From Pseudomonadota bacterium (lineage in GTDB: Bacteria > Pseudomonadota > Alphaproteobacteria > Rhizobiales > Tepidamorphaceae): a DNA stretch of 64,000 nucleotides. The DNA lies in contig JAEWYT010000121.1 in the NCBI GenBank assembly GCA_023458595.1, positions 2,983 to 66,982 on the forward strand. Direction: 5' to 3'. The position numbers and the translations under genes were made by a program. Positions 19,346-38,328 of the stretch are shown piece by piece; within the stretch, counting starts at the first letter, position 1; each line of letters begins with the position of its first letter. The notes beneath the pieces are model-generated. The model did not search any database. It saw nothing but the letters and a program-made list of their open reading frames with translations, and was not told the origin of the DNA.

Positions 19346-19870
19346 ATGGCGAGGATCGGGTATTGTGACGTCGACGGCCCGGAGCGCGAGACGATCGCCG
19401 CCGATATCGTCGCGCAGCGGGGCAGTTTTCCGCATCTCTACCGCATGCTGCTGCACAGCCCTTCCGTTGCCGCGGGCTGGCTCACCTATCTGACCGCGAT
19501 CCGGCAGCAGACGAGCCTTCCGGGCGATCTTAGGGAACTCGTCATCATGCGCGTCGCCATCCTGAACGACGCGCCCTACGAGGCCGAGCAGCACGCCCCG
19601 ATCGCCCTGGCCGAAGGCATGACGCCGGCGCAGCTCGGCGAACTCGCCGAATGGGAAGGCTCCGCGCTGTTCGATGACCGGCAGCGCGCGGTCCTCGCCC
19701 TGACCGATGCCATGACCCGCAACGTCCACGTGGACGAAGCCATCTTCGCCGCCGCGCGTGCGCAGTTCGATGAAAGGCTGATGGTGGAGCTCGTCGCCAC
19801 GGTCGCCGCCTACAACATGGTCTCGCGTTTTCTCGAAGCCTTGGAGGTCCGGGGCAGCGACCCCGTCTAG
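19346..19870 (+). CDS. Carboxymuconolactone decarboxylase / AhpD-like family protein
   Basis: 174-aa all-helical ORF with CMD-family features (LRELVIMRVAILNDAPYEAEQH). Stand-alone gene. Confidence 0.65.
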   Translation: MARIGYCDVDGPERETIAADIVAQRGSFPHLYRMLLHSPSVAAGWLTYLTAIRQQTSLPGDLRELVIMRVAILNDAPYEAEQHAPIALAEGMTPAQLGELAEWEGSALFDDRQRAVLALTDAMTRNVHVDEAIFAAARAQFDERLMVELVATVAAYNMVSRFLEALEVRGSDPV

Positions 19871-24233: not shown

Positions 24234-25778
24234 ATGAACGGAATCGACCAGATCGAAGAGCCGCTCTACGACGTCGTCGTCATCGGCCTCGGGCCGGCCG
24301 GGGCGACCTTGGCGAGTCTCCTCGGCCTCTGCGGCTTGTCGACATTGGTTCTCGAGCGCGAGGCGGAGACGTTTCACCTGCCGCGCGCCGTCGGCTTCGA
24401 CGACGAGGCGATGCGCGTCTTCCAGACGATCGGTCTCGCCGACGAGATCGCGAGCACCACGCGGCTCAATCCGGGCATGCGGTTTGTCGATACCGGGGGC
24501 GAGCAGATCCTGATCTGGCCGCGCCCGGCCGTGATAGGACCGAACGGCTGGTACTCGGCCTACCGCTTCCACCAGCCCGAGCTCGAGGCGCTGCTGCGCC
24601 GGGGCCTTGCCCGGTTTCCGAGCGTCGAGGTGCGCACCCGTGCCGATGTCTTTGCTTTCGACGAGGAGGCCGAGTGGGTGCGCGTGCGCTACGAGGACCT
24701 CGACTCCGGCCGGCTCGCGAGCAGCCGGGGGCGTTACGTGGTCGGCTGCGACGGCGCTCGCTCGCTGGTGCGCCGTTTCGTCGGCTCCTCGATGGACGAC
24801 CTCGGCTTCCACGAGCGCTGGCTGATCGTCGACGTGGTGCTGAAGACGCCGAAGCCCGAACTCGGCGACTACACGGTGCAGTTCTGCGATCCGCATCGCC
24901 CCGCTACCTACGTGCGCGGTCTCGGCGACCGCCGCCGCTGGGAGATCACGGTCCGTCCGGAAGAGGACTCCCGCGAGATGGTGCGCCCGGACGCCGTGTG
25001 GGGAGTATTGAGCCCCTGGCTCGGACGGGACGAGGCCGAGCTCGAACGGGCGACCGTCTACACGTTCCACTCCGCCGTAGCCCAGGTTTGGCGGCATGAC
25101 CGGCTGCTCCTCGCCGGCGATGCCGCCCATCAGACGCCCCCCTTCCTGGGCCAGGGCATGTGCGCCGGAATCCGCGATGCCGCCAATCTCGCCTGGAAGC
25201 TGGAACGCGTCATTCGCGGCAAGGCGCCGGATACGCTGCTGGATACCTACGAAAGCGAGCGTTCGCCGAACGTGCGGGAATACATCAGGACTGCCGTCCG
25301 CCTCGGCGGCCTGATCAACACGCGCGATCCGGAAGCCGCGCTCACGGCGGCATTTCGAGACGCGGACGGCTCGGCTTTCATCGAGACGATCCAGCCGCGC
25401 CTTGGACCCGGCTGCTTCGCTGACCGCGGCGATCTGCGCGGCCGCCCCGCCGCGCAGCCCAGGCTCGGCGACGGCCGCCTGCTCGACGACCATGTCGGCT
25501 ACGCATTCGTGCTACTCGCCAATGACGGGTTCTGGCGAGGCGTTCCCCCCGATATAAGGGATGCCTTCGTAGGGGACGGTGTCTCGGTCGTGACCGATGC
25601 CGGCAATCCCGAACTCGCGGCGTGGCTCGAACAGGTGAATGCCGAGGCGGTGCTCGTCCGTCCCGATCGCTATGTGGCCGGAACGGCGGGCGCCGTCTCG
25701 GATCTCCGCGACCTTTCCGGTGTTCTCGCATCACAGAATCCGCGCTCGCGCGCAGCAGGTGTTAAGGAGACGATATGA
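24234..25778 (+). CDS. FAD-dependent aromatic hydroxylase (MhpA / PheA-TfdB-like class A flavoprotein monooxygenase)
   Basis: 514 aa with GLGPAG dinucleotide fold, DGARSLVR motif and LAGDAAHQTPPFLGQGMCAGIRDAANLAWKL motif. Confidence 0.85.
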   Translation: MNGIDQIEEPLYDVVVIGLGPAGATLASLLGLCGLSTLVLEREAETFHLPRAVGFDDEAMRVFQTIGLADEIASTTRLNPGMRFVDTGGEQILIWPRPAVIGPNGWYSAYRFHQPELEALLRRGLARFPSVEVRTRADVFAFDEEAEWVRVRYEDLDSGRLASSRGRYVVGCDGARSLVRRFVGSSMDDLGFHERWLIVDVVLKTPKPELGDYTVQFCDPHRPATYVRGLGDRRRWEITVRPEEDSREMVRPDAVWGVLSPWLGRDEAELERATVYTFHSAVAQVWRHDRLLLAGDAAHQTPPFLGQGMCAGIRDAANLAWKLERVIRGKAPDTLLDTYESERSPNVREYIRTAVRLGGLINTRDPEAALTAAFRDADGSAFIETIQPRLGPGCFADRGDLRGRPAAQPRLGDGRLLDDHVGYAFVLLANDGFWRGVPPDIRDAFVGDGVSVVTDAGNPELAAWLEQVNAEAVLVRPDRYVAGTAGAVSDLRDLSGVLASQNPRSRAAGVKETI

Positions 25779-26620
25779 AGCTTTGTTCGTTCGGTGCCGA
25801 TGGCCGGTCCAGCTTCGGGCTGGTCACCGATGGGGGGATCGTCGATCTTGGCCGACGCTTTCCGGGTGTTGCGAGCCTGAGGGCCTTTCTCGCCGACGAT
25901 GGACTTGCCAAGGCGAAGGCCTTCGCCGGCGACACGGCCGCCGACTACGCGCTCGACGCGGTCACCTTCGAGCCGGTCATCACCGATCCCGACAAGATCG
26001 TCTGCATCGGCCTGAATTACCGGGACCACGTGGCCGAAACGGGCCGCACCGTCACCGAGAAGCCGGTCCTGTTTTCCCGCTATCCGGGCAGCCAGATCGG
26101 CCACGGCCAGCCCATGGTCAAGCCGCTTGAGTCCGACGAGTTCGACTACGAGGGCGAACTCGCCGTCATCATCGGCAAGCGCGGCAGGCGGATCCCGGAG
26201 GCGGACGCGCTGTCCTACGTCGCGGGCTACTCCTGCTACAACGACGGCAGCGTGCGCGACTGGCAGCGCCATACGTCGCAGTTTCTGCCCGGCAAGACCT
26301 TCGCCGGAACCGGCGGCATCGGCCCCTGGATGGTGACGGCCGACGAGATCCCCGACCCCACGAAGCTCACGCTGACGACGCGGCTGAACGGGCAGGTGGT
26401 GCAGAACACCACGACCGACCTGATGATCACGCCGATCCCTGCGCTGATCGCCTACATTTCGACGATCTTGCCGGTCGAAGTCGGCGATGTCATCGTGTCC
26501 GGCACCCCGGGCGGCGTCGGCGCGCGGCGCAACCCGCCGCTTTGGATGAAGGCCGGGGACACCGTCGAGGTGGAGATCAGCTCGATCGGCTGTCTCAGCA
26601 ACCCGGTGGTGAACGAGTAG
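25775..26620 (+). CDS. Fumarylacetoacetate hydrolase (FAH) family hydrolase/isomerase
   Basis: 281 aa. The FAH C-terminal fold motifs are present (IVCIGLNYRDH, DYEGELAVIIGK, GTPGGVG). ATGA overlap with the hydroxylase gene. Confidence 0.85.
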   Translation: MKLCSFGADGRSSFGLVTDGGIVDLGRRFPGVASLRAFLADDGLAKAKAFAGDTAADYALDAVTFEPVITDPDKIVCIGLNYRDHVAETGRTVTEKPVLFSRYPGSQIGHGQPMVKPLESDEFDYEGELAVIIGKRGRRIPEADALSYVAGYSCYNDGSVRDWQRHTSQFLPGKTFAGTGGIGPWMVTADEIPDPTKLTLTTRLNGQVVQNTTTDLMITPIPALIAYISTILPVEVGDVIVSGTPGGVGARRNPPLWMKAGDTVEVEISSIGCLSNPVVNE

Positions 26621-26698
26621 GATCGACGGCGGCCGGGCTCGCTGTGCGGCCGCCTGCGCCGCCCGCGGCACAGGCGCGAGCCCGGGCAGGGACGGCGG

Positions 26699-27493
26699 TT
26701 GAGCGGAGAGAGGCGCACGAGCGATCCGAAGGGCGACAGCGTCCGGTCCCTGCGTCGCGGGCTGGCGATCCTTCGGTACGTGAATTCGGTCCGCTCCACC
26801 AATCCGGCCGAGATCGCCTCGGTCCTCGATATTCCGCGCTCCACCGTCTACCGTCTGCTCCAGACGCTCGAGGAAGACGGCTATGTCCGCTACTCGAGTT
26901 CCGACAACCGGGTGCGCGTCGCGCGGCTGGCGGCCTCGCTCGGCGACAGCTACGTCGCGACGACCGACGTTTGCCACGTGGCGGGACCGATCTTCGGGGA
27001 GTACGGGCCGAAGCTCGTCTGGCCACTCGATCTCAGCGTCTACGAGGACGCGGCGATGGTCGTCGAGGAGACGACCCATCCGCGCAGTCCGCTTTCGGTC
27101 GATCGGGGCATGATCGGCTCCAGGCTCCCGGTCCTGCGAACCTCCGCGGGACGGGTGTATCTTGCCCACTGCAGCGAACGGGAGCGTTCGATCATAGTCG
27201 AGCAGATCCGCCGCCTCGGCGACCCGAAGGATGCGTCCTACCTGACGGATCGATATCTGAACCCGATGCTGGCGGAAGCCGCACGGCGCGGATACGCGGT
27301 CCGGGCCGAGAGCAGCCTGCATCCCAAGACGGCAAGCGTCGCCGTGCCCGTGGTCGTCGACAGGTCGGTACGGGCGACCGTCTCGATGATATGGATCCGC
27401 TCCGCCATGGATCTGGAGACGTCGATCGCGACCTACGTCCCCGCGCTTCAGGAGATTGCCGCCACGATCGCCGAGGCCGCCGCGCGAAGCTAG
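26699..27493 (+). CDS. IclR family transcriptional regulator
   Basis: 264 aa with an N-terminal wHTH (SLRRGLAILRYVNS...EIASVLDIPRSTVYRLLQTLEEDGYV) and an IclR effector domain. The start appears to be TTG, since no in-frame ATG lies nearby. Confidence 0.8.
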   Translation: MSGERRTSDPKGDSVRSLRRGLAILRYVNSVRSTNPAEIASVLDIPRSTVYRLLQTLEEDGYVRYSSSDNRVRVARLAASLGDSYVATTDVCHVAGPIFGEYGPKLVWPLDLSVYEDAAMVVEETTHPRSPLSVDRGMIGSRLPVLRTSAGRVYLAHCSERERSIIVEQIRRLGDPKDASYLTDRYLNPMLAEAARRGYAVRAESSLHPKTASVAVPVVVDRSVRATVSMIWIRSAMDLETSIATYVPALQEIAATIAEAAARS

Positions 27494-28986
27494 TGAACGG
27501 CGGCGTACATGATCTTCTCCTCTGTCGCCTCGATGGGCGACAGCTCCTCCACGATCCGCCCCTGCCGGCAGACGAGGATCCGGTCCGACAGGTTCATGAT
27601 CTCCGGCAGGTACGAGGAGATCATCACGACCGCGAGGCCCTCGTCGGCGAGAGCCTTTATGGTTTCGTGGATCTCGGCGATGGCCGCGACGTCGACGCCG
27701 CGCGTCGGCTCGTCGAAGATCACCATGCGCGGCCTCTGGACCAGGCCCTTGCCGATCACGACCTTTTGCTGGTTGCCGCCCGACAGTTCCACGACGCGCG
27801 CGTCGGCGTTGATCGTCTTGATGTTGAGCCGGCCGGTCCATTCCTCCGCGAGGTCGCGGATCGCGCGGGTGCGGATGACGAGCCCCTCCTCGCGCCCCGC
27901 CGCCAGGAGGCCGCCGAACAGGTTCTCGCCGATCGACATCGTCTCGAAGATGCCTTCGGACTTGCGGTCCTCGGTCACGTAGGCGATGCCGTCGCGCACG
28001 GCCTCGGCGGGCGTGTAGTAGCGCACCGGCTGATCGTCGAGCGCGATCGCGCCGCCGCGCAGGAAGTCCCGCTTGTAGATTCCGGCGACGATCTTGAACG
28101 TCTCGGTCCGGCCTGAGCCGATCAGCCCGAAAACCCCCGTGATCTGTCCTTCGAACACGGAAAAGGACGTGTTGCGGACCATGTTGCCCATCGAGATGTC
28201 CTGCACCGAAAGCACCTTGCGGCCCGGCTTGCGCAGATGGGTCACGTCGCGCTTCGAGTAGAGCTCCCCGGACAGCGTCCGGCCGACCATCGCGGCGATG
28301 ATCTTCTCGCGGTCGAAACCCGAGGTCGGGCCGGTGGCCACCAGTTCGCCGTCGCGCAGTATGGTGATGCGGTCGGAGATCATCAGCGCTTCCTCCAGCG
28401 CATGGCTGATGAAGACGATCGACACGCCGCGCGCCTTCAGCCGGCGCAGGAGCGCGAAGAAGTGGCGCTTCTCCTCCGGCGTCAGCGAGGCCGTCGGTTC
28501 GTCGAAGATGATGACGCGGGCTTCGTGATGCACGGCCCGGGCGATCTCGATCATTTGCCGCTTGGCGGCTCCGAGCGTCTCGACCATCGCCGTCGGGTCG
28601 ACCGGGAAGTTCAGCGACTGCAGGAACTGCTGCGCGGAGATGTAGATGCCGCGCAGGCGGTTCAGGAAGTTCTCCGAACCGAGATAGAGGTTCTGCGCGA
28701 CCGTCATCGACGGCACCAGGCTCGTCTCCTGGAACACCATTGCGATCCCCGCCTGCAGCGCCTCGTGGGGCGTCGCGAACTGCACCTCCGCGCCGCGATA
28801 GGTCATCCGCCCGGCCGTCGGCTCCACGACGCCGGCCATCACCTTCGTCAGCGTCGACTTGCCCGCGCCGTTCTCGCCGAGGAGCGCATGGATCTCGCCC
28901 TCGTTGAGGTCGAAATCGACGTCCTTGACCGCCGGCACGCTGCGGTAGGCCTTGGTGATGCGCTCCATGCGCACGATCGGGTCCAT
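27490..28986 (-). CDS. Sugar-type ABC transporter ATP-binding protein with duplicated ABC domains (RbsA/MglA-like)
   Basis: 498 aa with two Walker A / signature sets (GENGAGKST ... LSGGNQQKVVIG). GGAGGTGA RBS. The ATG shares one base with the upstream gene's stop (TGATG). Confidence 0.9.
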   Translation of the reverse strand: MDPIVRMERITKAYRSVPAVKDVDFDLNEGEIHALLGENGAGKSTLTKVMAGVVEPTAGRMTYRGAEVQFATPHEALQAGIAMVFQETSLVPSMTVAQNLYLGSENFLNRLRGIYISAQQFLQSLNFPVDPTAMVETLGAAKRQMIEIARAVHHEARVIIFDEPTASLTPEEKRHFFALLRRLKARGVSIVFISHALEEALMISDRITILRDGELVATGPTSGFDREKIIAAMVGRTLSGELYSKRDVTHLRKPGRKVLSVQDISMGNMVRNTSFSVFEGQITGVFGLIGSGRTETFKIVAGIYKRDFLRGGAIALDDQPVRYYTPAEAVRDGIAYVTEDRKSEGIFETMSIGENLFGGLLAAGREEGLVIRTRAIRDLAEEWTGRLNIKTINADARVVELSGGNQQKVVIGKGLVQRPRMVIFDEPTRGVDVAAIAEIHETIKALADEGLAVVMISSYLPEIMNLSDRILVCRQGRIVEELSPIEATEEKIMYAAVH

Positions 28987-30020
28987 CACGTCACCTCCGG
29001 CGCCAGGATGCCGTCGCCGCCCTTCGAGGCGACGAGGAGCCGTCCGTCCGCCTCGATCGCGCTCGTCGTTCCGTGGCGGATGCCGTTCGCCCGGCTGTGC
29101 AGGCTGAAGACCGGGAGGAAGTTGGCGTCGAGCTTCGCGACGAGGCCGAACGACGTGCTGGGCGCCCAGGCCTTGTGCACGCCCATCGTCCGGATGCCGC
29201 CGCATTGCAGCGGCTCGAGGAAGCTGCGCCCCGACGACAGCGCCGGCGCGATCCAGAACTCGCGCGGCACTTCGGCCATCATGTCGTGCCGGTAGAGGGT
29301 TTCCTGAAGCACGAGTTCGATCAGCCGGTTGCGCGGCGCGAAGATCGAAAGCCACGCTCCGCCGTCGGCGGCGGGCGAAATCCGCGCCGGGTAGCCCGGC
29401 AGGTGAGTGAGGAGCGGATCCACGCCGTCGAGACCGACCCGCACGAGCCGGTGCCGCCAGCACTCGCTGACGAGCGCCGCCTCGCCCGTGGGGAGGATTC
29501 CGTAGGGCCATTCGAGGCCCTTGGCGATGCCCTTGAACCCTTCGCCCTTCCGCCGGTACCAGACCGAGCCGTTGGCGTTCTTCTCCATGAGATCGGCGGC
29601 CCAGCCGGAAGCCGGGTGGCGGTCGGAGCCGTTGGCAAGCCACAGCGACCCGTCGGATCCGTAGGCGAGGGCGGTGATGCAGGACACGCCCTTCGGTAGC
29701 TCGGCCGGCCTTCCGCCTTCGATCAGCGTTCCATCGTCGAGGGCGACGGCGAGCGTTCCCTCCGGCGCGGCTGCGACCGCCGTGATCTCTGCAGGAAAGG
29801 TCTCGACGAGGTCCGGCGGGGCGCCGTCCCTCACGGCGTAGAGGCGAGCGCCGCTCGTCGCGAGCAGGCGGCCGCCGGCCTTGCACAGATTGTCGGCCGC
29901 GGGCAGGTGGGCGACGACGGCCGCCTCGTCGAGTGCCGTATTCGCGCGGAACGCGCCGTCCAGCGGGGGGATCGTGACCGCCTTGCCGCGGAAGATGTCG
30001 AGGATCGGGTCGAAGATCAT
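28986..30020 (-). CDS. Stand-alone strictosidine-synthase/SMP-30-like beta-propeller protein, no signal peptide
   Basis: 344 aa starting at MIFDPILDIF. Propeller-like blades are present (ALAYGSDGSLWLANG, EWPYGILPTGEAALVSECWRHRLVRV, PGYPARISPAADGGAWLSIF). It parallels the C-terminal domain of the upstream fusion protein. Confidence 0.65.
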   Translation of the reverse strand: MIFDPILDIFRGKAVTIPPLDGAFRANTALDEAAVVAHLPAADNLCKAGGRLLATSGARLYAVRDGAPPDLVETFPAEITAVAAAPEGTLAVALDDGTLIEGGRPAELPKGVSCITALAYGSDGSLWLANGSDRHPASGWAADLMEKNANGSVWYRRKGEGFKGIAKGLEWPYGILPTGEAALVSECWRHRLVRVGLDGVDPLLTHLPGYPARISPAADGGAWLSIFAPRNRLIELVLQETLYRHDMMAEVPREFWIAPALSSGRSFLEPLQCGGIRTMGVHKAWAPSTSFGLVAKLDANFLPVFSLHSRANGIRHGTTSAIEADGRLLVASKGGDGILAPEVT

Positions 30021-32140
30021 GACCGTTTGCCCCAATAGGCGTCGTTCGACGTCCAGGCCGCATCGGCCCCCTCGATGCGATAACGGCCGACCCGGTTGTT
30101 GAGGATGCCGCCGATGTAGAGGTAGCCCTTGTGCTCGCGCATCGACGTCACCATCGGATGCGACAGCCCGGACAGATCGCCGTAGGTCCGGATGATCTCG
30201 CCCCTGTCGTCGAACTTCACCACGCCGCCGGTGTTGATGTTCGGGAACAGCCAGTCGTCCTGCGGCAGGCGGCGCGTCATGCGCTTGCGCATTCCCGGAT
30301 GGCGCAGCGACAGGTCGAAGCTCGGCGTCCGCATGCCGAGCCACGCCATCCAGTAGGTCCCGTCGGAGGCCCGGTTCACGTTGTCCGGGTATCCGGGCAT
30401 GTCGCGGATCACGCACTCGGCGGTGCCGGCCTTCGGACCTTCGAGCCAGTAGCGGTGGATGCGGCACGCCCAGCTTTCGCAGAAGAACAGCGACTTGTTG
30501 TCGTGCGCCATGCAGACGCCGTTCGTATAGCGGTAGCCGTCGAGCAGCGTGCGCGTGCTGCCGTCCTTCGGGTCGTAGACCAGGAGTCGCCCGGTCGCCC
30601 GGTTCTCGATCGAGTCGAGCGCCCAGTCGTGGGCGTCGTAGCGCTTGGTGGAATCGGTGAAGTAGACCTTGCCGTCCGGCGCGATGTCGAGGTCGTTTGG
30701 ATCGCGCAGGCGGGCGTCGTCGACGATCGAGGTGAACGAGCGGTGCGTCTCGGCCGAAAGCCGCGTCACCTCGCGCTCGGGCGATATCCTGTAGAGCCCC
30801 ATCGCGCCGACGCAGGACAGCAGGTTGCCGTCGTGGTCGAAGGCGAGGCCGAGCGGGAAGCCGCCGATATGGGCGAACACCTCCGAGCGGGTGTAGTCGG
30901 GCGCGAAGAAGCGCACGATCTCGCCGTGGCGCGTGCCGCAATAGAGGTTGTCGTCGCGGTCGAGGATGACGTCCTCGGGCCCCTCGAGCTCGCCGAGGCC
31001 GATCGGCTCGGCCTCCGACAGACGGTTGTTCAGCGCGTAGGGCGAGCCGGAGCCGGGCACGGCGGACTGCGTGTCGCCCATGCGCAGATAGACCGGGGCG
31101 ACATAGACCTCGTTCAGCACCTTGTGGCGGTTCTTGAGCCAGCGGATGTCGATCGTCACGGCGGCGGCGAGCAGGATGCCCAGAACCATCTGGTTGGTTC
31201 CGGTGCCGTAGCCGAGACGGATCAGGCCGTTGGTCATCACCAGCACGATCACCGCGCCCATCAGGCCCTTGACGACCGATCCGCGCCCGCCGCCGAGGCT
31301 GTTGCCGCCGACGACTGCGGCGGTCAGCGCGAGGATCTCGAGCCCGAGGCCGGTGCCCGGTCCGGCGCCGCTCAGCCGCGTCGCGATCAGGAAGCCGGCG
31401 CCCGCCGAGCAGAGGCCGGAGAACACATAGGTCAGGAAAACCGTCAGCCGGACCCGGATGCCGGCATTGTGCGCCGAGCGCCGAGATCCGCCGACGGCGA
31501 GCACGTGCCAGCCGGGCCGGGAGCGCGTCAGCGCGACATGGGTGACGATGGCAAGCGCGATCGCCGCCAGCACGGGCACGGAAATGCCGAGGAGCGTGCC
31601 GTCGCCGATGAAGTCCCAGGTGTCGGACGAGGCGAAGGAAAGCTGGATCTTCGAACCGTGGGCGACGACGAGGATGTCGTAGAGAGCCCGGCCGATGATG
31701 AAGGTCACCAGCGTCGTGATGAACGCCCTGAGCCTCAGGAAGCCGATCAGGTAGCCGTTGACCGCGCCGAAGACGAGGCCGGTCGCCATCGACGCCAGGA
31801 AGGCGACCCAGACGGGCTGCTCGAAGATGAAGAAGGTCGAGACCGCGGCGAAGGCCGAGAGTGCGAAGATGGAGCCGACGGCGAGGTCGATGCCGCCGCC
31901 CAGCATCACGACCGTCAGCCCGATCACGACGAGGCTGAACTCGCCGAGCTGGCGTGTCGATTCCTGTAGCGAATAGAGCTGGAAGAAGCCCGGGATGATG
32001 CTGCCGAACGTCGCCACCGTCGTGACGAGGGCGAGGAACGGGATCGCGTTGTCGGTCCACCGCTTTGTCAGGATCTCGCCGATGACGTGATCGGGAATGA
32101 AATTGTAGCGCCACGCCTGCAGGCGCTCACGGGTCGTCAT
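30017..32140 (-). CDS. Fusion protein: RbsC-type ABC permease (N-terminal ~345 aa) plus strictosidine synthase-like beta-propeller domain (C-terminal ~350 aa)
   Basis: 707 aa starting at MTTRERLQAW. The N-terminal half is a polytopic BPD_transp_2-type permease. The C-terminal half carries Str_synth hallmarks (GPEDVILDRDDNLYCG, NDLDIAPDGKVYFTDS, YTNGVCMAHDNKSLFFCESWACRIHRYWLEGPKAG, PGYPDNVNRASDGTYWMAW). The frame is continuous with no stop. Confidence 0.85.
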   Translation of the reverse strand: MTTRERLQAWRYNFIPDHVIGEILTKRWTDNAIPFLALVTTVATFGSIIPGFFQLYSLQESTRQLGEFSLVVIGLTVVMLGGGIDLAVGSIFALSAFAAVSTFFIFEQPVWVAFLASMATGLVFGAVNGYLIGFLRLRAFITTLVTFIIGRALYDILVVAHGSKIQLSFASSDTWDFIGDGTLLGISVPVLAAIALAIVTHVALTRSRPGWHVLAVGGSRRSAHNAGIRVRLTVFLTYVFSGLCSAGAGFLIATRLSGAGPGTGLGLEILALTAAVVGGNSLGGGRGSVVKGLMGAVIVLVMTNGLIRLGYGTGTNQMVLGILLAAAVTIDIRWLKNRHKVLNEVYVAPVYLRMGDTQSAVPGSGSPYALNNRLSEAEPIGLGELEGPEDVILDRDDNLYCGTRHGEIVRFFAPDYTRSEVFAHIGGFPLGLAFDHDGNLLSCVGAMGLYRISPEREVTRLSAETHRSFTSIVDDARLRDPNDLDIAPDGKVYFTDSTKRYDAHDWALDSIENRATGRLLVYDPKDGSTRTLLDGYRYTNGVCMAHDNKSLFFCESWACRIHRYWLEGPKAGTAECVIRDMPGYPDNVNRASDGTYWMAWLGMRTPSFDLSLRHPGMRKRMTRRLPQDDWLFPNINTGGVVKFDDRGEIIRTYGDLSGLSHPMVTSMREHKGYLYIGGILNNRVGRYRIEGADAAWTSNDAYWGKRS

Positions 32141-32221
32141 CTGCAATCCGTCTGTTCGATGCGCACGCGGCAAGAGGGGCGGCCGCCCTGGGCCGGCCAC
32201 CCCCGGATTCGTGGAGCCGGA

Positions 32222-33241
32222 CTACTCTCCCGCTTCCGCCTGAAGGGCCTTCAGGTCCCAGCAGCTGTCGGGCTTGAGGTTGTCCTTCGTCGTCGCCTTC
32301 AGCAGCGTGTAGAGGTACGGCGACGAGGTTCCGGGCGGCTGGCCGCTCTGCAGCAGGTACTTGATCATCGTGACCATGTTGTAGCTTTCCTGCTTCAGCT
32401 CGGTCATGACGACGGCGCCGTAGGTGCCGTTCTCGATCATGTCGCAGTCGGCCGTCTTCTCGCCGCCGCCCGTCGTCACGAGGAACACCTTGTCCTGCAT
32501 GCCGGCGTCGCGGATCGCCGCGGCCGCACCGGTCGCGTCGCCGTCCCAGAAGTCGATGATCCCGCAGATGTCAGGGTGCTGCTGCAGCATGGTGGTGGTC
32601 ACGTTGCGCGAGGTCGTCGCGTCCCAGTTCGAGTCGGGCTTGGCCACGACCTCGAAGTCGGGATGCTTGGAGAGCACGTCCATGATGCCGGCATACTGGA
32701 ACAGGCTCGTCGCGTTCACCTGATCGCCTTGCACGAGGCCGATCTTCTTCGAGGAGTCGGGGCCGCAGCCCTTGACCACGGCTTCCGCCTCCAGCCGGCC
32801 GAGCTGGGTCCAGTCGCTGCCGAGATAGGCGTCGGCCTTGAAGTTCGCCGGGTTGTCGATGAGCAGGACGTAGATTCCCGCCTCCTGCGCCTTCTTCATG
32901 AGCTTGGAGTAGGAATTCAGGTCCGGCGACATGACGATCAGCACGTCGGGCTTGGGATCCGCCGAGATCGCCTCGGTGATCGCCTGGGCGCCGGCTTCCA
33001 CGCTCCAGTTCGGATCGCGCGTCTCGAAGACGCCGCCGAAGGCGTCGACCTCGCGCTTGAGGATCGCGGCCCAGCCCTGGGCGAGGTCGAAGCCCATGGC
33101 CATCGGCACGAGCAGGACGCGCTTGCCCTTGAGCGCTTCGGCATAGGCGGCCGGAGCGGGATCCTGCGCATATGCCGGCAGCGCGGCGAAAGTCGCCGCC
33201 GTCAGCGCGGCAGCGGCCAGTACGGTTCTCATCGGTTTCAT
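32222..33241 (-). CDS. Sugar-type ABC transporter periplasmic binding protein (Peripla_BP_4-like)
   Basis: 339 aa starting at MKPMRTVLAAAALTAATFAALPAYAQ (signal peptide), with a type I PBP fold pattern. Confidence 0.85.
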   Translation of the reverse strand: MKPMRTVLAAAALTAATFAALPAYAQDPAPAAYAEALKGKRVLLVPMAMGFDLAQGWAAILKREVDAFGGVFETRDPNWSVEAGAQAITEAISADPKPDVLIVMSPDLNSYSKLMKKAQEAGIYVLLIDNPANFKADAYLGSDWTQLGRLEAEAVVKGCGPDSSKKIGLVQGDQVNATSLFQYAGIMDVLSKHPDFEVVAKPDSNWDATTSRNVTTTMLQQHPDICGIIDFWDGDATGAAAAIRDAGMQDKVFLVTTGGGEKTADCDMIENGTYGAVVMTELKQESYNMVTMIKYLLQSGQPPGTSSPYLYTLLKATTKDNLKPDSCWDLKALQAEAGE

Positions 33242-33291
33242 CGTTTCACTCTTTCCCCTGTTGGACTCTGATGTCGTTGTCGGCGCTCCGT

Positions 33292-34284
33292 TCAGATATC
33301 GCCCTGCTGGGCCGTCTGCTCGTCGCGCGGGTTGAGCACGCCGTCGACGATGATCGCAAACAGCAGGATCGTCGATTTGATGAGGTTCTGATAGAGCAGC
33401 GGGATGTCGATGATCGTCATCGCGTTCAGCATGATGCCGATCAGCGCCGCGCCGACGAGGACGTTGCGGACGCCACCCTTTCCGCCGGACAGGCCGATGC
33501 CGCCGATCACCGCGACGAGCACGATGTCGTAGAGCAGGGTGGAATTGACCACGCGGGTGTTGATCGAGTGCAGGCTGGCCGCCGTCAGCAGTCCCGCCAC
33601 GAAGGCGATCACCGCCGACAGAGCGTAGCGCAGCATCAGCATCGGCCGCACCGGGATGCCGATGTTGCGCGCCCCGATCGGATTGTCGCCGGCGTAGTAG
33701 ACGTACCGGCCCCATTTCGTGAAGCGCAGGAGAACGAACGCCGCGCCGGAGAGCAGCAGGAAGAGATAGATCTCGATCGGCACGCCGAGAAACCGCAGCC
33801 CGCCCGTGATCTCGACCCAATGCCCGTCGGGCACCGGCACCGCGTCCGAAGGGATCAGCTGCGAGCGCACGTAGCCGAAGACGAAGGCCCCGCTCGCCAG
33901 CGTCACGAAGATCGCCGGGACGTCGGCATAGGCGATGAGGAAGCCGTTTATCAGCCCGATCGCCAGCACGCCGCCGAGCACCAGCGCGAACGCCAGGGAG
34001 TCCGGCATCCCGTCGCCGAGAAGCTGCAGGTACCAGGCGACCGACATCGCCATCACGGCGACCATCGACAGGTCGATGCCACGCCCGATGATGACGACCG
34101 ACATCCCCAGCGCGAGGATGCCCAAAACCGCGATGGAGCGGACGATGGCGATCAGGTTCGCCGCCGTCAGGAATCCCGGCAGCCCGATCACGGCGGCGCC
34201 GAAGATCAGGACCGCGACGACGAGGACGATCCGTTCCTGGTTCAGATTCCGCAGGAAAGTCGCGACGCTCCCGCCCATGCACAC
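33292..34284 (-). CDS. RbsC-type ABC transporter permease
   Basis: 330-aa polytopic ORF, similar to the N-terminal half of the fusion protein (GGIGLSGGKGGV versus GGNSLGGGRGSV). Confidence 0.88.
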   Translation of the reverse strand: MCMGGSVATFLRNLNQERIVLVVAVLIFGAAVIGLPGFLTAANLIAIVRSIAVLGILALGMSVVIIGRGIDLSMVAVMAMSVAWYLQLLGDGMPDSLAFALVLGGVLAIGLINGFLIAYADVPAIFVTLASGAFVFGYVRSQLIPSDAVPVPDGHWVEITGGLRFLGVPIEIYLFLLLSGAAFVLLRFTKWGRYVYYAGDNPIGARNIGIPVRPMLMLRYALSAVIAFVAGLLTAASLHSINTRVVNSTLLYDIVLVAVIGGIGLSGGKGGVRNVLVGAALIGIMLNAMTIIDIPLLYQNLIKSTILLFAIIVDGVLNPRDEQTAQQGDI

Positions 34285-34401
34285 CTCGTCGCCCGGTTGG
34301 TCTCGGATCCGCCCCGGAACCGAAAATTCAGCTTAGCGAGCGCCGAAAGCCGGCGTCCAATGAAAGATTCTGCGCATTATCGATACCGAACCGGAATGTG
34401 T

Positions 34402-35346
34402 TCAAACGATATGCAGATGCGGCCCCGGCGTGCGCCCCTGTGCCGCCGTTTTGTTCTCTTCGGCCATGATGTGCGCCCTGAGGCCTTCGATGAACCGCTT
34501 GCCGTAGGCCGGCAGGGGCATTCGCCCGTCCCAGATGGCGCATATGTCGAAGCTGATCTGCTCGCCGCGCAGCGTGATCGGGCGGCTCGTCAGCGTGTGG
34601 CTGTCGAGCCGCGCCGACGAGGGTACGACGGCGACGCCGTTTCCGCCTTCCGCCAGCGCGAACAGCGTGTGCGGCGAAGCCCCTTCCAGCACGATCCGCG
34701 GCACGATTCCGGTCAGCCGGCAAGCGGCGTCGAAGACCTCGCGCGAGGCGTGGCGGCGGTTCAGCGTCAGGATCGGGCTTTCGAGCAGCGCGGCGATCTC
34801 GATCGGACCGCCGGTATCCGGAAGCAGGTCGGGCGTGGCGACCGCCAGGAAGGCGAGCTCGCCGAGGCGAAGGGTCTCGAAGGGCTCGATCGGCGTGGAG
34901 GGCATCGCGCTGATCGTCAGGTGTACCGAGCCCGCCTGGAGCCTTTCCATCAGTTCGGGCCCGCCGGCGTCCTCGAGCCGCACGTCGATCCCCGCATTGG
35001 CCGCGCGCCAGTCGCGCAGGAACATCGGCAGGTAGCGCTCGATCAGCTGCGAACAGGCGCCGATCTTCAGGAGCCCGCTCTGGTCCCGCGCGAGATCGCC
35101 GGCGAAGGCGCGCAGGTCGCGGTCCGCCGCCAGCACGCCGTTGACGCGCGACAGGAGCGCCTCGCCGGCCGCCGTCAGCCTCACGTTGCGTCCCGCCTTC
35201 TCGAACAGGCGCAGCCCGAGGGACTCCTCCAGGCTGCGGATCTGCCGCGACAGCGCCGACTGGGTGATGTTCAGCATCTGCGCCGCCAGCGTGATGTTCT
35301 GCGTTTCGGCGGCCGTCACGAAGCCGGTATAGGTGCGGATATCCAT
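34402..35346 (-). CDS. LysR family transcriptional regulator
   Basis: 314 aa with an N-terminal HTH (FVTAAETQNITLAAQMLNITQSALSRQIRSLEE) and a LysR substrate-binding domain. Confidence 0.9.
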   Translation of the reverse strand: MDIRTYTGFVTAAETQNITLAAQMLNITQSALSRQIRSLEESLGLRLFEKAGRNVRLTAAGEALLSRVNGVLAADRDLRAFAGDLARDQSGLLKIGACSQLIERYLPMFLRDWRAANAGIDVRLEDAGGPELMERLQAGSVHLTISAMPSTPIEPFETLRLGELAFLAVATPDLLPDTGGPIEIAALLESPILTLNRRHASREVFDAACRLTGIVPRIVLEGASPHTLFALAEGGNGVAVVPSSARLDSHTLTSRPITLRGEQISFDICAIWDGRMPLPAYGKRFIEGLRAHIMAEENKTAAQGRTPGPHLHIV

Positions 35347-35421: not shown

Positions 35422-36060
35422 TCAGCCGGCCAGTTCGGCGACCAGCGCGTCGGTCGTCACCTGCCGGCAGTAGCCCTTGATGGTCGTCAGCGAATGGTCG
35501 TGCCGCGCCTGCGTATAGGTGAGGCAGGCGTCGGTCACCTGCGTCACCAGATAGCCGAGATCGCAGGCGTCCCGGATCGCGCTCTCCACGCACTGGTCCG
35601 TGACGAGCCCGGAGATGACGAGTTGCCTCACCCCGAGGTTGCGCAGGACGTAGTCGATATGGGTCGAGACGAAAACCGAGGAGGACGATTTCGGCAGGAC
35701 GATCTCGTCGTCGCCCGGCTTCAGCGCGTCGATCACCTTGCCGTCCCACGACCCCTTCGGGACGTTGAAGCCGGTGATCTTGTAGTCGAGGCTGCGGTCG
35801 CGGCCGTCCCGCGTGAGGCTCTCGATCGTGGTGTACATCACCTCGATTCCCGCCGCGCGGCAGGCCGCCTGCAGTCGCTGCATGTTCGGCACCACGCGCG
35901 CCTCGAGCTGGTCGAAGAACCAGCCGTACTTCTCGCCGAACTCGGGCGCGGGGACGTCCTTGAACTCGCCGCCCTTGCGATGCGCGCAGAAGTTCTGCAC
36001 GTCGATATAGAGGAGCGCGGACTGCTCCGTGACGAGCGGCACGTCCCGGGTGAGCGTCAT
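35422..36060 (-). CDS. Isochorismatase-family cysteine hydrolase
   Basis: About 212 aa with family pattern ALLYIDVQNF ... LVISGLVTDQCVESAIRDA (catalytic Cys context). I prefer the ATG at 36060 (AAGGGA RBS) to the TTG at 36075. Confidence 0.8.
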   Translation of the reverse strand: MTLTRDVPLVTEQSALLYIDVQNFCAHRKGGEFKDVPAPEFGEKYGWFFDQLEARVVPNMQRLQAACRAAGIEVMYTTIESLTRDGRDRSLDYKITGFNVPKGSWDGKVIDALKPGDDEIVLPKSSSSVFVSTHIDYVLRNLGVRQLVISGLVTDQCVESAIRDACDLGYLVTQVTDACLTYTQARHDHSLTTIKGYCRQVTTDALVAELAG

Positions 36061-36061
36061 T

Positions 36062-36838
36062 TCACGTCCCTTCAAGCCAGCGGTCGAGCGTCACGGATAG
36101 CCATTCCGCCCAGCGGTCCTGTCCCGCGGCGCCATCGATATGGTCGTTGCGGATCTCCATCAGGCTGTGCGGCAGGCCGCGGGCCTCGCCGTGCCGCGGG
36201 ACGAACCAGTCCGACAGGTCGTCGATCCGGTAGGGCTCGTTCATGCCGATCCGCAGTTCGGGGCGGAGATCTTTGACGAGATCGGCGAGGCGCGCGGATG
36301 TGTGCTCGTCCTTTCGGAACAGGAAGCCGATGTCCCAGGGACGGGAAACGCCTCCGAAGACCGGCGTGAACGAATGGATGGAGAAAGCCGCCCGGACAGG
36401 ACCCCGATCGAGGACGTTCGCCACGGCGTCCTGGAACGGCTGGAAAATCTCGTCCACCCGGGCCGTGCGCTCCGGTTCCGTCAGGTCCAGATTTGCCGGG
36501 ACGGTCGATCCGTCGCTGACCTCGGGAATCGAGTCCGGGGCGGCGGTCGGTCGGTTGCAGTCGATGACGAGCCGGCTGTAGGGCTGCAGCACGCACGCGC
36601 ATCCGAGGCGCTCGGCCATGCGCCTGGCGACCGCACCGGCGCCGATGTCCCAGCCTATGTGCCGGTCTATATCGCCTCCGGGCAACCCGAGATCGCCGAG
36701 AACCGACGGGATCGCCTGGCCCGCGTGCTCGCAGACCAGCAGGATCGGGTGGTCGCTGTCGGGATTGACGATCTCCAGCGGCGCCGGATCGTCCGGCGTC
36801 AGAAGTGTGCGGGAGGTCGCGTCCGAAACAGCCGCCAT
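36062..36838 (-). CDS. N-formylglutamate amidohydrolase (FGase) family protein
   Basis: 258 aa with FGase-family features (ILLVCEHAG, SRLVIDCNR, AFSIHSFTP, EIRND). Confidence 0.75.
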   Translation of the reverse strand: MAAVSDATSRTLLTPDDPAPLEIVNPDSDHPILLVCEHAGQAIPSVLGDLGLPGGDIDRHIGWDIGAGAVARRMAERLGCACVLQPYSRLVIDCNRPTAAPDSIPEVSDGSTVPANLDLTEPERTARVDEIFQPFQDAVANVLDRGPVRAAFSIHSFTPVFGGVSRPWDIGFLFRKDEHTSARLADLVKDLRPELRIGMNEPYRIDDLSDWFVPRHGEARGLPHSLMEIRNDHIDGAAGQDRWAEWLSVTLDRWLEGT

Positions 36839-37014
36839 GTCGCCTCTTCGGTTCCGGCGGGAAGGGATGTCGGCACGCTAGTCCGGATCGCGGGGAAGCG
36901 CCAGCGGGGACGGACGGCGCCGGTTGTCACGGCGCACGGCAAGTGTTTGTCTCCTGTCTGACGATTGCGCCGGATTCCCCGATCCGGCGGCCCCGCAAGT
37001 TCGAGAAGCCGCGC

Positions 37015-38328
37015 ATGATCGCCAATCCGCTGATTTTCGTCGCCGCCCCCGATATCGCCGGCAAGACCCGCGGCAAGGCGTTTCCGGTCGCCGATCTGGA
37101 CAAACGGCTACGCAGGGGCGTCGGCTGGACGCCCACCAACGTCATGATCACCTGCTTCGACGCCATCGCCGAAAGTCCGTTCGGCGCGCTGGGCGATCTC
37201 CTGCTCGTCCCCGATCCGAATGCCGGCGTCGAGATCGATTTCGGCGACGACGGCCCGGTCGAGCGCTTCATGCTCGGCGACATCACCGGGCTCGACGGTA
37301 CGCCCTGGAACCTCTGCACGCGGTCGATCCTCAGGGGTGCGCTGGATAGGCTGAAGAGGGTTGCCGGCATCGAGCTCGTGGCGGCCTTCGAGCACGAGTT
37401 CCAGTTCAAGGGGGCCAGTCCGCCTCTCGGACAGGCCTACGCGCTGACCGGGTTCTCCGGGCGCCGCCGTTTCGGCGAGGCCCTGATGGCCGCGCTGGAC
37501 CAAGCCGGGCTGACGCCCGACACCTTCATGAAGGAATACGGCGCGAGCCAGTTCGAGATAACCAACGACCCGCGAAAGGGCGTCGGCGCCGCGGACGCCG
37601 CGGTGATCCTGCGCGAGCTGACGCGGATGACGGCCGCCCGGCTCGGCGAGGAGGTGAACTTCACGCCTATCCGCGATCCGGCGAGCGTCGGCAACGGCGT
37701 CCACATCCACATGAGCTTCGTCGACGGCGAGGGAAACCCCGCGACCTATTCGGCCGACAGTCCGGCAGGGCTGTCGGAGATCGCCGGGTCCTTCGTCGCC
37801 GGGGTCCTGAAGTACCTCGACCGTTTCCTCGCGCTCACCGCGCCCTCCGACATTTCCTACCTGCGGCTGACGCCGCATCGCTGGAGCGCGGCCTTCAACA
37901 ATCTCGGCTTTCGCGACAGGGAGGCGGCGGTGCGGATATGCCCGGTCACCGCCGCCGATCCGCAGGCGGTCGCGCGGCAGTTCAATTTCGAGTTCCGCGC
38001 CGGAGACGCGGCCGCCTCGCCCCATCTGGCGCTGGCCGCGATCGTCCATGCCGGCTCGCAAGGAATAGAAGAAGGCCTGCCGGCCCCTGCGATCACGCAG
38101 GAGGACCTGTCGCTGCTGCCGGCCACGGAGCTGGCGAAGCGCGGCCTCATCCGGCTGCCGCGGTCGCTCGAGGAGGCCCTGGCGAAATTCGAGGCCGACG
38201 ACACGGTTCGCGGCTGGTTCACGGGCGATTTCGCGTCCGTCTACGTCGCCCACAAGCGCGGCGAGCTGGCCTTTCTGAAGGGTATGAGCCCGGAGGAACG
38301 CTGCGCGGCCTATGAATCGTCGTATTGA
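37015..38328 (+). CDS. Glutamine synthetase-family (gamma-glutamyl ligase type) protein
   Basis: 437 aa starting at MIANPLIFVAAP, with GS catalytic-domain motifs (FEHEFQF, YGASQFEIT, GNGVHIHMSF). Divergent from the FGase-like gene. Confidence 0.75.
   Translation: MIANPLIFVAAPDIAGKTRGKAFPVADLDKRLRRGVGWTPTNVMITCFDAIAESPFGALGDLLLVPDPNAGVEIDFGDDGPVERFMLGDITGLDGTPWNLCTRSILRGALDRLKRVAGIELVAAFEHEFQFKGASPPLGQAYALTGFSGRRRFGEALMAALDQAGLTPDTFMKEYGASQFEITNDPRKGVGAADAAVILRELTRMTAARLGEEVNFTPIRDPASVGNGVHIHMSFVDGEGNPATYSADSPAGLSEIAGSFVAGVLKYLDRFLALTAPSDISYLRLTPHRWSAAFNNLGFRDREAAVRICPVTAADPQAVARQFNFEFRAGDAAASPHLALAAIVHAGSQGIEEGLPAPAITQEDLSLLPATELAKRGLIRLPRSLEEALAKFEADDTVRGWFTGDFASVYVAHKRGELAFLKGMSPEERCAAYESSY

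Follow-up and report, generated by a model that had tools for sequence, protein, structure and literature searches.

A CUT2-family ABC importer with two strictosidine-synthase-like propellers, one free and the other joined to a permease, in a Rhizobiales bacterium

What is a propeller from a family of enzymes doing at the end of an importer permease, and what is the role of the second, free-standing propeller encoded next to it? The locus that raises this question lies in a stretch of 64,000 nucleotides (nt) from a member of the Tepidamorphaceae (Alphaproteobacteria; Rhizobiales; assembly GCA_023458595.1, contig JAEWYT010000121.1, positions 2,983 to 66,982 of the forward strand), which we refer to at its full length as the window. 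Six co-directional genes on the minus strand, at 27490-35346, encode a LysR-family regulator and the five-gene module of an ATP-binding cassette (ABC) importer. An earlier note, made from the sequence alone, had read the five genes as a permease, a binding protein, a permease fused to a propeller, a second propeller and a double-domain ATPase, with the last three coupled by short overlaps and a LysR gene adjacent; every gene is indeed where the note had put it. The overlaps are real as well, with 4 nt (ATGA, 30017-30020) shared between the stop of the fusion and the start of the free propeller, and one base (28986, within TGATG) shared between the stop of the free propeller and the start of the ATPase. 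The module is a binding-protein-dependent importer of the CUT2 family that has been extended by two six-bladed strictosidine-synthase-like (SSL) propellers, one fused and one free, both of which we place in the cytoplasm.

The assignment to CUT2 (TC 3.A.1.2; RbsABC, AraFGH, XylFGH, YtfQRT-YjfF, LsrACDB) follows from the traits that the module shares with that family. In these systems the Peripla_BP_4 protein carries a signal peptide, the membrane part is made of a single BPD_transp_2 permease or of two, each having some 10 helices and an EAA-like loop, and a single ATPase has two ABC domains. In the window, both permeases are RbsC/AraH-like BPD_transp_2 proteins, taken here to have 10 helices each, the Peripla_BP_4 protein is secreted and one ATPase carries both ABC domains, and the use of two different permeases is paralleled by YtfT/YjfF and LsrC/LsrD. 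Unlike this module, characterised CUT2 importers have neither a permease that bears a fused cytoplasmic propeller nor a gene for a propeller subunit between those of permease and ATPase. The ATPase scores 430-460 bits over its full length against the AraG/XylG/RbsA-like NCBIfam models, in each case below the equivalog cut-off, and because all the equivalog scores of the module fall far below cut-off, no known substrate specificity can be assigned to it. The binding protein has 57 sugar-binding relatives in the PDB. In a comparison that is made at low identity and is therefore indicative, it keeps a single one (D89) of the ten residues that we take to be the ribose ligands of RbsB; where RbsB has two arginines and D215, the window protein has N, Q and T, and tryptophans stand at the equivalents of positions 164 and 190 (the E. 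coli RbsB sequence was checked against 1URP/2DRI). The description of the importer as "sugar-type" thus holds for the transporter family but does not demonstrably extend to the substrate, and a simple monosaccharide is not implied.

The fused domain belongs to the SSL family. Within the fusion protein, BPD_transp_2 covers residues 64-327 (E 2.2e-31) and is followed by SSL_N (residues 367-411; 55.5 bits against a gathering threshold of 18.9), SGL (412-602; 59.6 against 26.3 bits) and Str_synth (482-568; 81.8 against 25 bits). The family motifs that the note had quoted are all present, with YTNGV at residues 538-542, RIHRYWLEGPKAG at 560-572, PGYPDNV at 582-588 and GTYWMAW at 594-600. The best relative by sequence in the PDB is rice TGW6 (8kg3, E 1.7e-26), a hydrolase of the ester IAA-glucose (IAA, indole-3-acetic acid) in which E59, N167, N226 and N272 form a putative Ca site (PMC10958001). 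The counterparts in the fused domain are E389, N482, N540 and N587, with D586 just before the last, and they are invariant in 47 homologues; E389 was assigned through the shared GPE motif rather than the PDB alignment. The two proteins therefore have in common the SSL_N segment, the Str_synth/SGL propeller, the YxNGV and PGYPDNV motifs and the putative E/N/N/N site. They differ in that the window domain is C-terminal to a 10-helix permease and is predicted to be cytoplasmic, whereas TGW6 and typical bacterial SSL proteins are soluble or singly anchored, and extracytoplasmic.

The comparison extends to other propellers of this fold. Strictosidine synthase (STR1, 2fp8; EC 4.3.3.2) shares the fold and the Pfam family, but the N/DN residues of the site, kept in the fused domain, are missing from it. 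Glu309, which we take to be the catalytic residue of STR1, corresponds to Thr665 of the fused domain (in the second segment of the alignment, a weak one that EHxGxLYIG anchors), and with this glutamate replaced the domain is not a Pictet-Spenglerase. The SMP-30/gluconolactonase/LRE proteins, PON1, Drp35 and DFPase share the fold, an SGL match above cut-off and a plausible lactonase or esterase chemistry. They differ from the fused domain in that sequence similarity is weak (E 1e-4 to 5e-3 for the gluconolactonases of the PDB), and in that these metal-dependent hydrolases usually have at least two acidic residues in the site, whereas a single one is assigned to the putative site of the fused domain, as in TGW6.

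The free protein draws no match in the Pfam or NCBIfam profile searches, yet it is a true, though very divergent, paralogue of the fused domain without a signal peptide, just as the earlier note had proposed. BLASTP aligns the two with E 1e-15 at 23% identity, and profile-profile alignment of the two families with hhalign gives a probability of 99.3% and E 1.8e-19 over 277 columns. An AlphaFold2 model of the free propeller (predicted local distance difference test, pLDDT, 80; predicted TM-score, pTM, 0.82) was matched by Foldseek to strictosidine synthases, TGW6, PON1 and Drp35 (probability 1.00, TM-scores of about 0.6-0.7, E down to 6e-12), with STR1 (PDB 2fp8) at the top. The site itself has not been kept. 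By profile alignment, T116, Y173 and R213 stand at the three asparagine positions of the fused site and A212 at that of D586; for the first position, motif alignment alone suggests that it may be D43. Since three or more of the four residues have been exchanged, this protein is not another hydrolase of the fused type, and the loss of conserved residues that had been named in advance as the mark of a purely structural propeller is what we find in this half of the pair.

A free propeller always accompanies the fused one, as a separate subunit that is translationally coupled to it, and a profile search finds the family always free-standing, at 344-375 amino acids (aa), with no alternative fusions. 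Its members have invariant motifs of their own across all subfamilies, namely TIPPLDG...N..LD near the N-terminus, SExWRHR, LPGYPxR, FAPRN and HSRAxGxRHG, together with a 28-aa insertion (SFLEPLQxGGxKxMGxxKPWAPS, residues ~262-289) that is specific to this family, invariant, and modelled with low confidence.

Conservation between loci points in turn to the fused domain. Median identity to the window protein, over the 74 loci in which all components are present, is highest for the fused propeller (85.8%), followed by the membrane domain of the same fusion (81.7%), the ATPase (80.7%), permease A (79.0%), the binding protein (76.4%) and the free propeller (60.9%); the loci were picked by similarity to the fusion protein, which biases the ranking between proteins and leaves the comparison of the propeller with its own membrane domain unaffected. 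The enzyme-like domain is, by this measure of sequence identity, constrained at least as strongly as the transport core.

We tentatively propose, at somewhat less than even confidence, that the module imports its substrate and that the fused propeller then immediately hydrolyses an ester or lactone bond in it, with the free propeller as a non-catalytic partner. The binding protein would deliver a neutral ligand, probably not a simple monosaccharide, and ATP hydrolysis would drive it through the dimer of permeases A and B. The fused propeller would lie against the cytoplasmic face beside the exit and could act on the emerging compound through a TGW6-like site formed by E389, N482, N540 and D586/N587; hydrolysis would trap the product, and uptake would become irreversible. 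The free propeller would be the mate of the fused one, possibly docked under permease A as a pseudo-symmetric partner, and the upstream LysR protein would be the likely regulator of the transporter genes. Three observations suggest hydrolysis: the closest solved relative is an ester hydrolase whose four site residues have invariant counterparts here, no component is as well conserved as the fused propeller, the ATPase included, and related bacterial SSL domains are fused elsewhere to enzymes of hydrolase type (FAA_hydrolase, polysaccharide deacetylase).

A close rival, which we regard as a serious possibility if a less favoured one, is that both propellers are non-catalytic and form a structural or regulatory module in the cytoplasm, with the imported compound or a metabolite as its ligand. 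Such a module would control the ATPase by gating or trans-inhibition, in the manner of the regulatory domains in MalK, MetN and ModC, or alternatively would hand the substrate on like the cytoplasmic acceptors of haem importers, and the retained TGW6-like residues would then make up a binding site instead of an active site. Several features fit this explanation well. The linker between permease and propeller is largely invariant among the 47 homologues and is no floppy tether; the low-confidence but invariant 28-aa loop and the N-terminus of the free propeller have the character of interaction surfaces; and translational coupling suits stoichiometric assembly. The loss of the site, moreover, occurs in the free propeller everywhere and extends to fused ones. 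Among 14 divergent permease-SSL fusions that we tabulated (10 of them representatives of 50%-identity clusters), about six have lost the site residues (P0244, P0255, P0256, P0261, P0264 and P0266), and the three of these whose contexts are readable (P0255, P0261 and P0266) keep the whole five-gene module. Because the site can be lost while the module stays intact, the architecture must serve something besides TGW6-like chemistry.

The claim that a hydrolase-type enzyme is fused to the permease therefore stands only in part: the putative metal-site residues of TGW6 are kept here and lost in these divergent fusions. Further points weigh against hydrolysis, beyond the selection of loci mentioned above. 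The crystal structure of TGW6 shows no Ca2+ at the equivalent site, so that the metal site is putative even there (PMC10958001). The full-length AlphaFold2 model of the fusion, built on an alignment of 47 close homologues, is poor (pLDDT 55) and gives no usable position for the propeller with respect to membrane domain or ATPase. Gene neighbourhoods yield no consistent substrate, and the invariant polar motifs of the free propeller suggest that it is not simply decaying and could be the functionally essential half. On the other side, a purely structural or regulatory role must contend with the strict invariance of the four site residues in this subfamily and with a conservation of the fused propeller that exceeds that of all other components. 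The nearest characterised relatives are enzymes, SSL domains are joined to other enzymes elsewhere, and we know of no ABC regulatory domain with an SSL propeller fold. On these sequence comparisons, catalysis is plausible for the subfamily represented in the window, and it cannot be the universal reason for the architecture.

Two sets of observations on related proteins belong beside this question. In two subfamilies without the site, one at the related locus L089 (10724-13140) and the other that of P0255, a separate hydrolase gene (Lactamase_B, of the metallo-beta-lactamase fold, or Amidohydro_1) directly follows the ATPase gene; it may be a functional replacement, which, with two cases only, is no more than suggestive in favour of hydrolysis. 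Other bacterial SSL fusions, drawn from proteins P0374, P0358, P0384, P0322, P0386 and P0319/P0324/P0347, include FAA_hydrolase-SSL (with no membrane anchor), SSL-polysaccharide deacetylase and SnoaL_2-SSL proteins, and a type in which an N-terminal domain of ~540 aa of no assigned kind is followed by membrane helices and SSL.

If import and hydrolysis were indeed coupled, the module might be a previously unrecognised class of ABC importer in which an obligatory, pseudo-symmetric pair of propellers couples transport to substrate conversion. Such vectorial catalysis would be functionally akin to group translocation, driven here by an ABC transporter. We consider this wider interpretation possible, though less likely than not.

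Coupling of this kind depends on the side of the membrane on which the fused propeller lies. We used helix positions alone from the full-length model, which was set aside as a query for fold searches, and the DSSP helices give permease B 10 membrane helices. CUT2 permeases typically have 10 transmembrane segments and are related to BtuC (PMC3654945). The conserved EAA-like coupling loop AVGGSRRSAHNAGI lies between helices 6 and 7 and is followed by four helices; with both termini inside, the cytoplasmic loops hold 15 lysines and arginines against two in the periplasmic loops, and the basic segment RWLKNRHK comes immediately after the last helix. As the EAA-like loop must meet the ATPase, the four helices beyond it and the distribution of positive charge make it most likely that the fused propeller is cytoplasmic, like the free propeller, which has no signal peptide.

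The opposite arrangement, with an odd number of helices in permease B and a periplasmic propeller that acts on the substrate before or during its capture by the binding protein, appears improbable. Its appeal lies in the habits of the family. Many SSL-family members, including PON1, plant strictosidine synthases and APMAP, are extracytoplasmic, and stand-alone bacterial SSL proteins (~355 aa) start with a basic-hydrophobic anchor followed by SSL_N, which predicts a propeller on the outside. Topology predictors also disagree on CUT2 permeases (PMC3654945). Against it stand the helix count, the loop and the charges just described, and an obligate partner propeller that has no signal peptide; the FAA_hydrolase-SSL fusions without an anchor show, besides, that this clade can work in the cytoplasm.

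That the fusion is genuine is borne out on a much larger scale. At least 120 protein clusters, 81-91% identical to it, are all 706-716 aa long, and the full-length fusion is encoded in 402 GTDB species genomes, with the top match (93%) in a metagenome-assembled genome of Tepidamorphus. Full-length versions that are 50-68% identical occur on plasmids of Pantoea, Paraburkholderia, Celeribacter, Sulfitobacter, Salipiger and Shinella, and further fusions of 674-746 aa, as representatives of 50%-identity clusters, reach down to ~39% propeller identity. In four independent runs on sludge or bioreactor material, one of them labelled RNA-Seq, contigs span 30979-31558 and have no indels there. The frameshift near 31060-31100 that had been feared is excluded by the constant length, the 402 genomes and the indel-free contigs. 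We found no natural split of the fusion. The sole apparent one is on metagenome contig L091 (5850-6120), where the permease and SSL halves are separate open reading frames (ORFs) divided by a 1-nt frameshift in the conserved linker; either the contig was misassembled from long reads or it carries a pseudogene. The notion of an assembly or sequencing artefact, or of a pseudogene joining a permease gene to a separate SSL gene, can point to the separate halves of that contig alone and is already refuted by these results, its probability being negligible.

How new is such an arrangement? Literature searches for a permease-SSL propeller arrangement found no description of one, and the database labels of the fused and free proteins do not go beyond "ABC transporter permease", "SMP-30/gluconolactonase/LRE family protein" and "hypothetical protein". 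The view that the arrangement had not been characterised is upheld to that extent, but the fusion of an enzyme to a transporter as such has a precedent in mycobacterial IrtAB, an ABC importer with a fused cytoplasmic siderophore-interaction (reductase) domain that processes the imported substrate (PMC11779899). IrtAB is the nearest precedent for the logic proposed here, with an enzyme-type domain attached covalently on what our topology predicts to be the same, cytoplasmic side of the transporter. It differs in its exporter-type fold, in having no binding protein, in the N-terminal position of its flavin domain and in having no second, free paralogue, and it has no relationship to the window fusion in sequence or fold.

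The same five-gene order was seen in every context examined, in Alpha-, Beta- and Gammaproteobacteria and down to ~39% identity, and it is identical on the plasmids of Pantoea, Paraburkholderia and Celeribacter and around the most divergent fusions (P0266, P0261 and P0255). The contexts of divergent fusions were taken from exact-protein look-ups, and locus searches of GTDB genomes for these fusions gave nothing useful. The module is a core gene set in Mesorhizobium; Rhizobium, Ochrobactrum/Brucella and many Rhodobacterales have it too, as do some Pantoea and Paraburkholderia. Fusions that are 83-87% identical (P0027 and P0113) come from assemblies with the labels Pseudomonas sp. R2.Fl and R3.Fl, on contigs of up to 7.5 Mb, and may reflect a wrong organism label or a transfer of the module.

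Table 1. Coordinates, in the window, of the importer module, of the parts of its fusion protein and of the genes upstream
Feature	Position	Strand	Basis or remark
Glutamine-synthetase-like, closest to gamma-glutamylputrescine synthetase	~37015-38328	+	
N-formylglutamate-amidohydrolase-like	36062-36838	-	
Isochorismatase-family hydrolase	35422-36075	-	directly upstream of the LysR gene
LysR-family regulator	34402-35346	-	Pfam HTH_1 and LysR_substrate; directly upstream of the transporter genes
Sigma-70-like promoter match TTGAAC-18-GATAAT	34376-34405	-	LysR/permease A spacer; consensus match only
Permease A (RbsC-like)	33292-34284	-	BPD_transp_2 match in Pfam (E 4.5e-25)
Binding protein	32222-33241	-	Peripla_BP_4, E 1.6e-42, 146 bits; N-terminal Sec signal peptide MKPMRTVLAAAALTAATFAALPAYA, read from the letters themselves
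Permease B-SSL fusion, 707 aa	30017-32140	-	BPD_transp_2, SSL_N, Str_synth and SGL
Fusion residues 1-338: permease B membrane domain	31127-32140	-	Pfam; helices of AlphaFold2 model
Fusion residues 339-411: basic linker KNRHKVLNEVYVAPVYL... and SSL_N segment with GPED motif (E389)	30908-31126	-	
Fusion residues 412-707 and stop codon: six-bladed SSL/SGL propeller	30017-30907	-	Str_synth, SGL
Free propeller paralogue, 344 aa	28986-30020	-	BLASTP, profile-profile alignment, AlphaFold2/Foldseek
Tandem-domain ATPase (RbsA/AraG-like), 498 aa	27490-28986	-	two ABC_tran domains

Some details of the layout bear on expression. For permease A, the ATG at 34278, with GAGG ahead of it, is a likelier start than the one tabulated, and orthologues are 325 aa long. 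The promoter match in the spacer between the LysR gene and permease A comes from a consensus scan of the region that returned three sigma-70-like sites where 0.8 were expected. The 81-nt spacer between the binding protein and the fusion holds a GC-rich hairpin with an 11-bp stem (GGGGGUGGCCG...CGGCCGCCCC, ~32150-32200, minus strand), which could differentially stabilise the upstream transcript; as a special fold it was rejected, the whole spacer being no better than shuffled sequence (z -0.73).

The neighbourhoods were surveyed by clustering the ORFs of 85 related loci. The proposal that the adjacent LysR gene is a candidate regulator is reasonable, in that an orthologue stands in the same position in ~31 of the 85, including those of Ochrobactrum/Brucella and R. 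leguminosarum, but no such linkage is seen in Mesorhizobium; judged by this linkage, the LysR protein is a likely regulator of the module. In 72 of the 85 loci, and in Pantoea too, the ATPase gene is followed by one for a 136-aa AhpD-family (CMD) protein whose CxxC-type motif reads NGCQYCVHSH; the window and its nearest relatives lack this gene, and tblastn finds at best a weak match in the window, at 19520-19645. A class-IV aminotransferase and an NADPH:quinone-reductase-like gene are frequent downstream. Upstream, about 20 non-Mesorhizobium loci of several genera, including the window, have the glutamine-synthetase-like, N-formylglutamate-amidohydrolase-like and isochorismatase-like set, accompanied in many of them by an RpiR regulator that is not seen in the window; the trio at 35422-38328 may be a linked unit for the catabolism of an amine or amide. 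The neighbours are unrelated in Mesorhizobium, Pantoea, Paraburkholderia and Celeribacter.

On the other flank, at 24234-27493, the window encodes a 3-(3-hydroxyphenyl)propionate hydroxylase of MhpA type, which clears the NCBIfam cut-off for its subfamily, a protein of the FAA_hydrolase family, and an IclR regulator resembling MhpR, which clears the equivalog cut-off. The gene of this regulator converges on the ATPase gene, with ends overlapping at 27490-27493. This neighbourhood is not conserved among related loci. The FAA_hydrolase gene (25775-26620) was considered as a Rosetta-stone partner of the propellers and rejected, since such a gene is nearby in only 5 of 85 loci. A sulfur-scavenging context, suggested by luciferase-like monooxygenases (LLM) and SfnB-like and SsuABC-like genes near the module in Ochrobactrum and R. 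leguminosarum, was rejected as well because these genes are not found near it elsewhere. An attempt to read the substrate from the neighbourhood was likewise set aside, as no single pathway emerges over the 85 loci.

If the pair of propellers proves to be an integral and functional part of the importer, it would add a new accessory module to the repertoire of ABC importers. The bacterial strictosidine-synthase-like proteins are a large family for whose members we know of no substrates, and the module, if it works as proposed, would give the first functional handle on them. It occurs in tractable plant-associated and marine bacteria, in which the proposal can be tested, and its presence may point to a nutrient or signal of plant-associated and marine habitats that has so far gone unrecognised.

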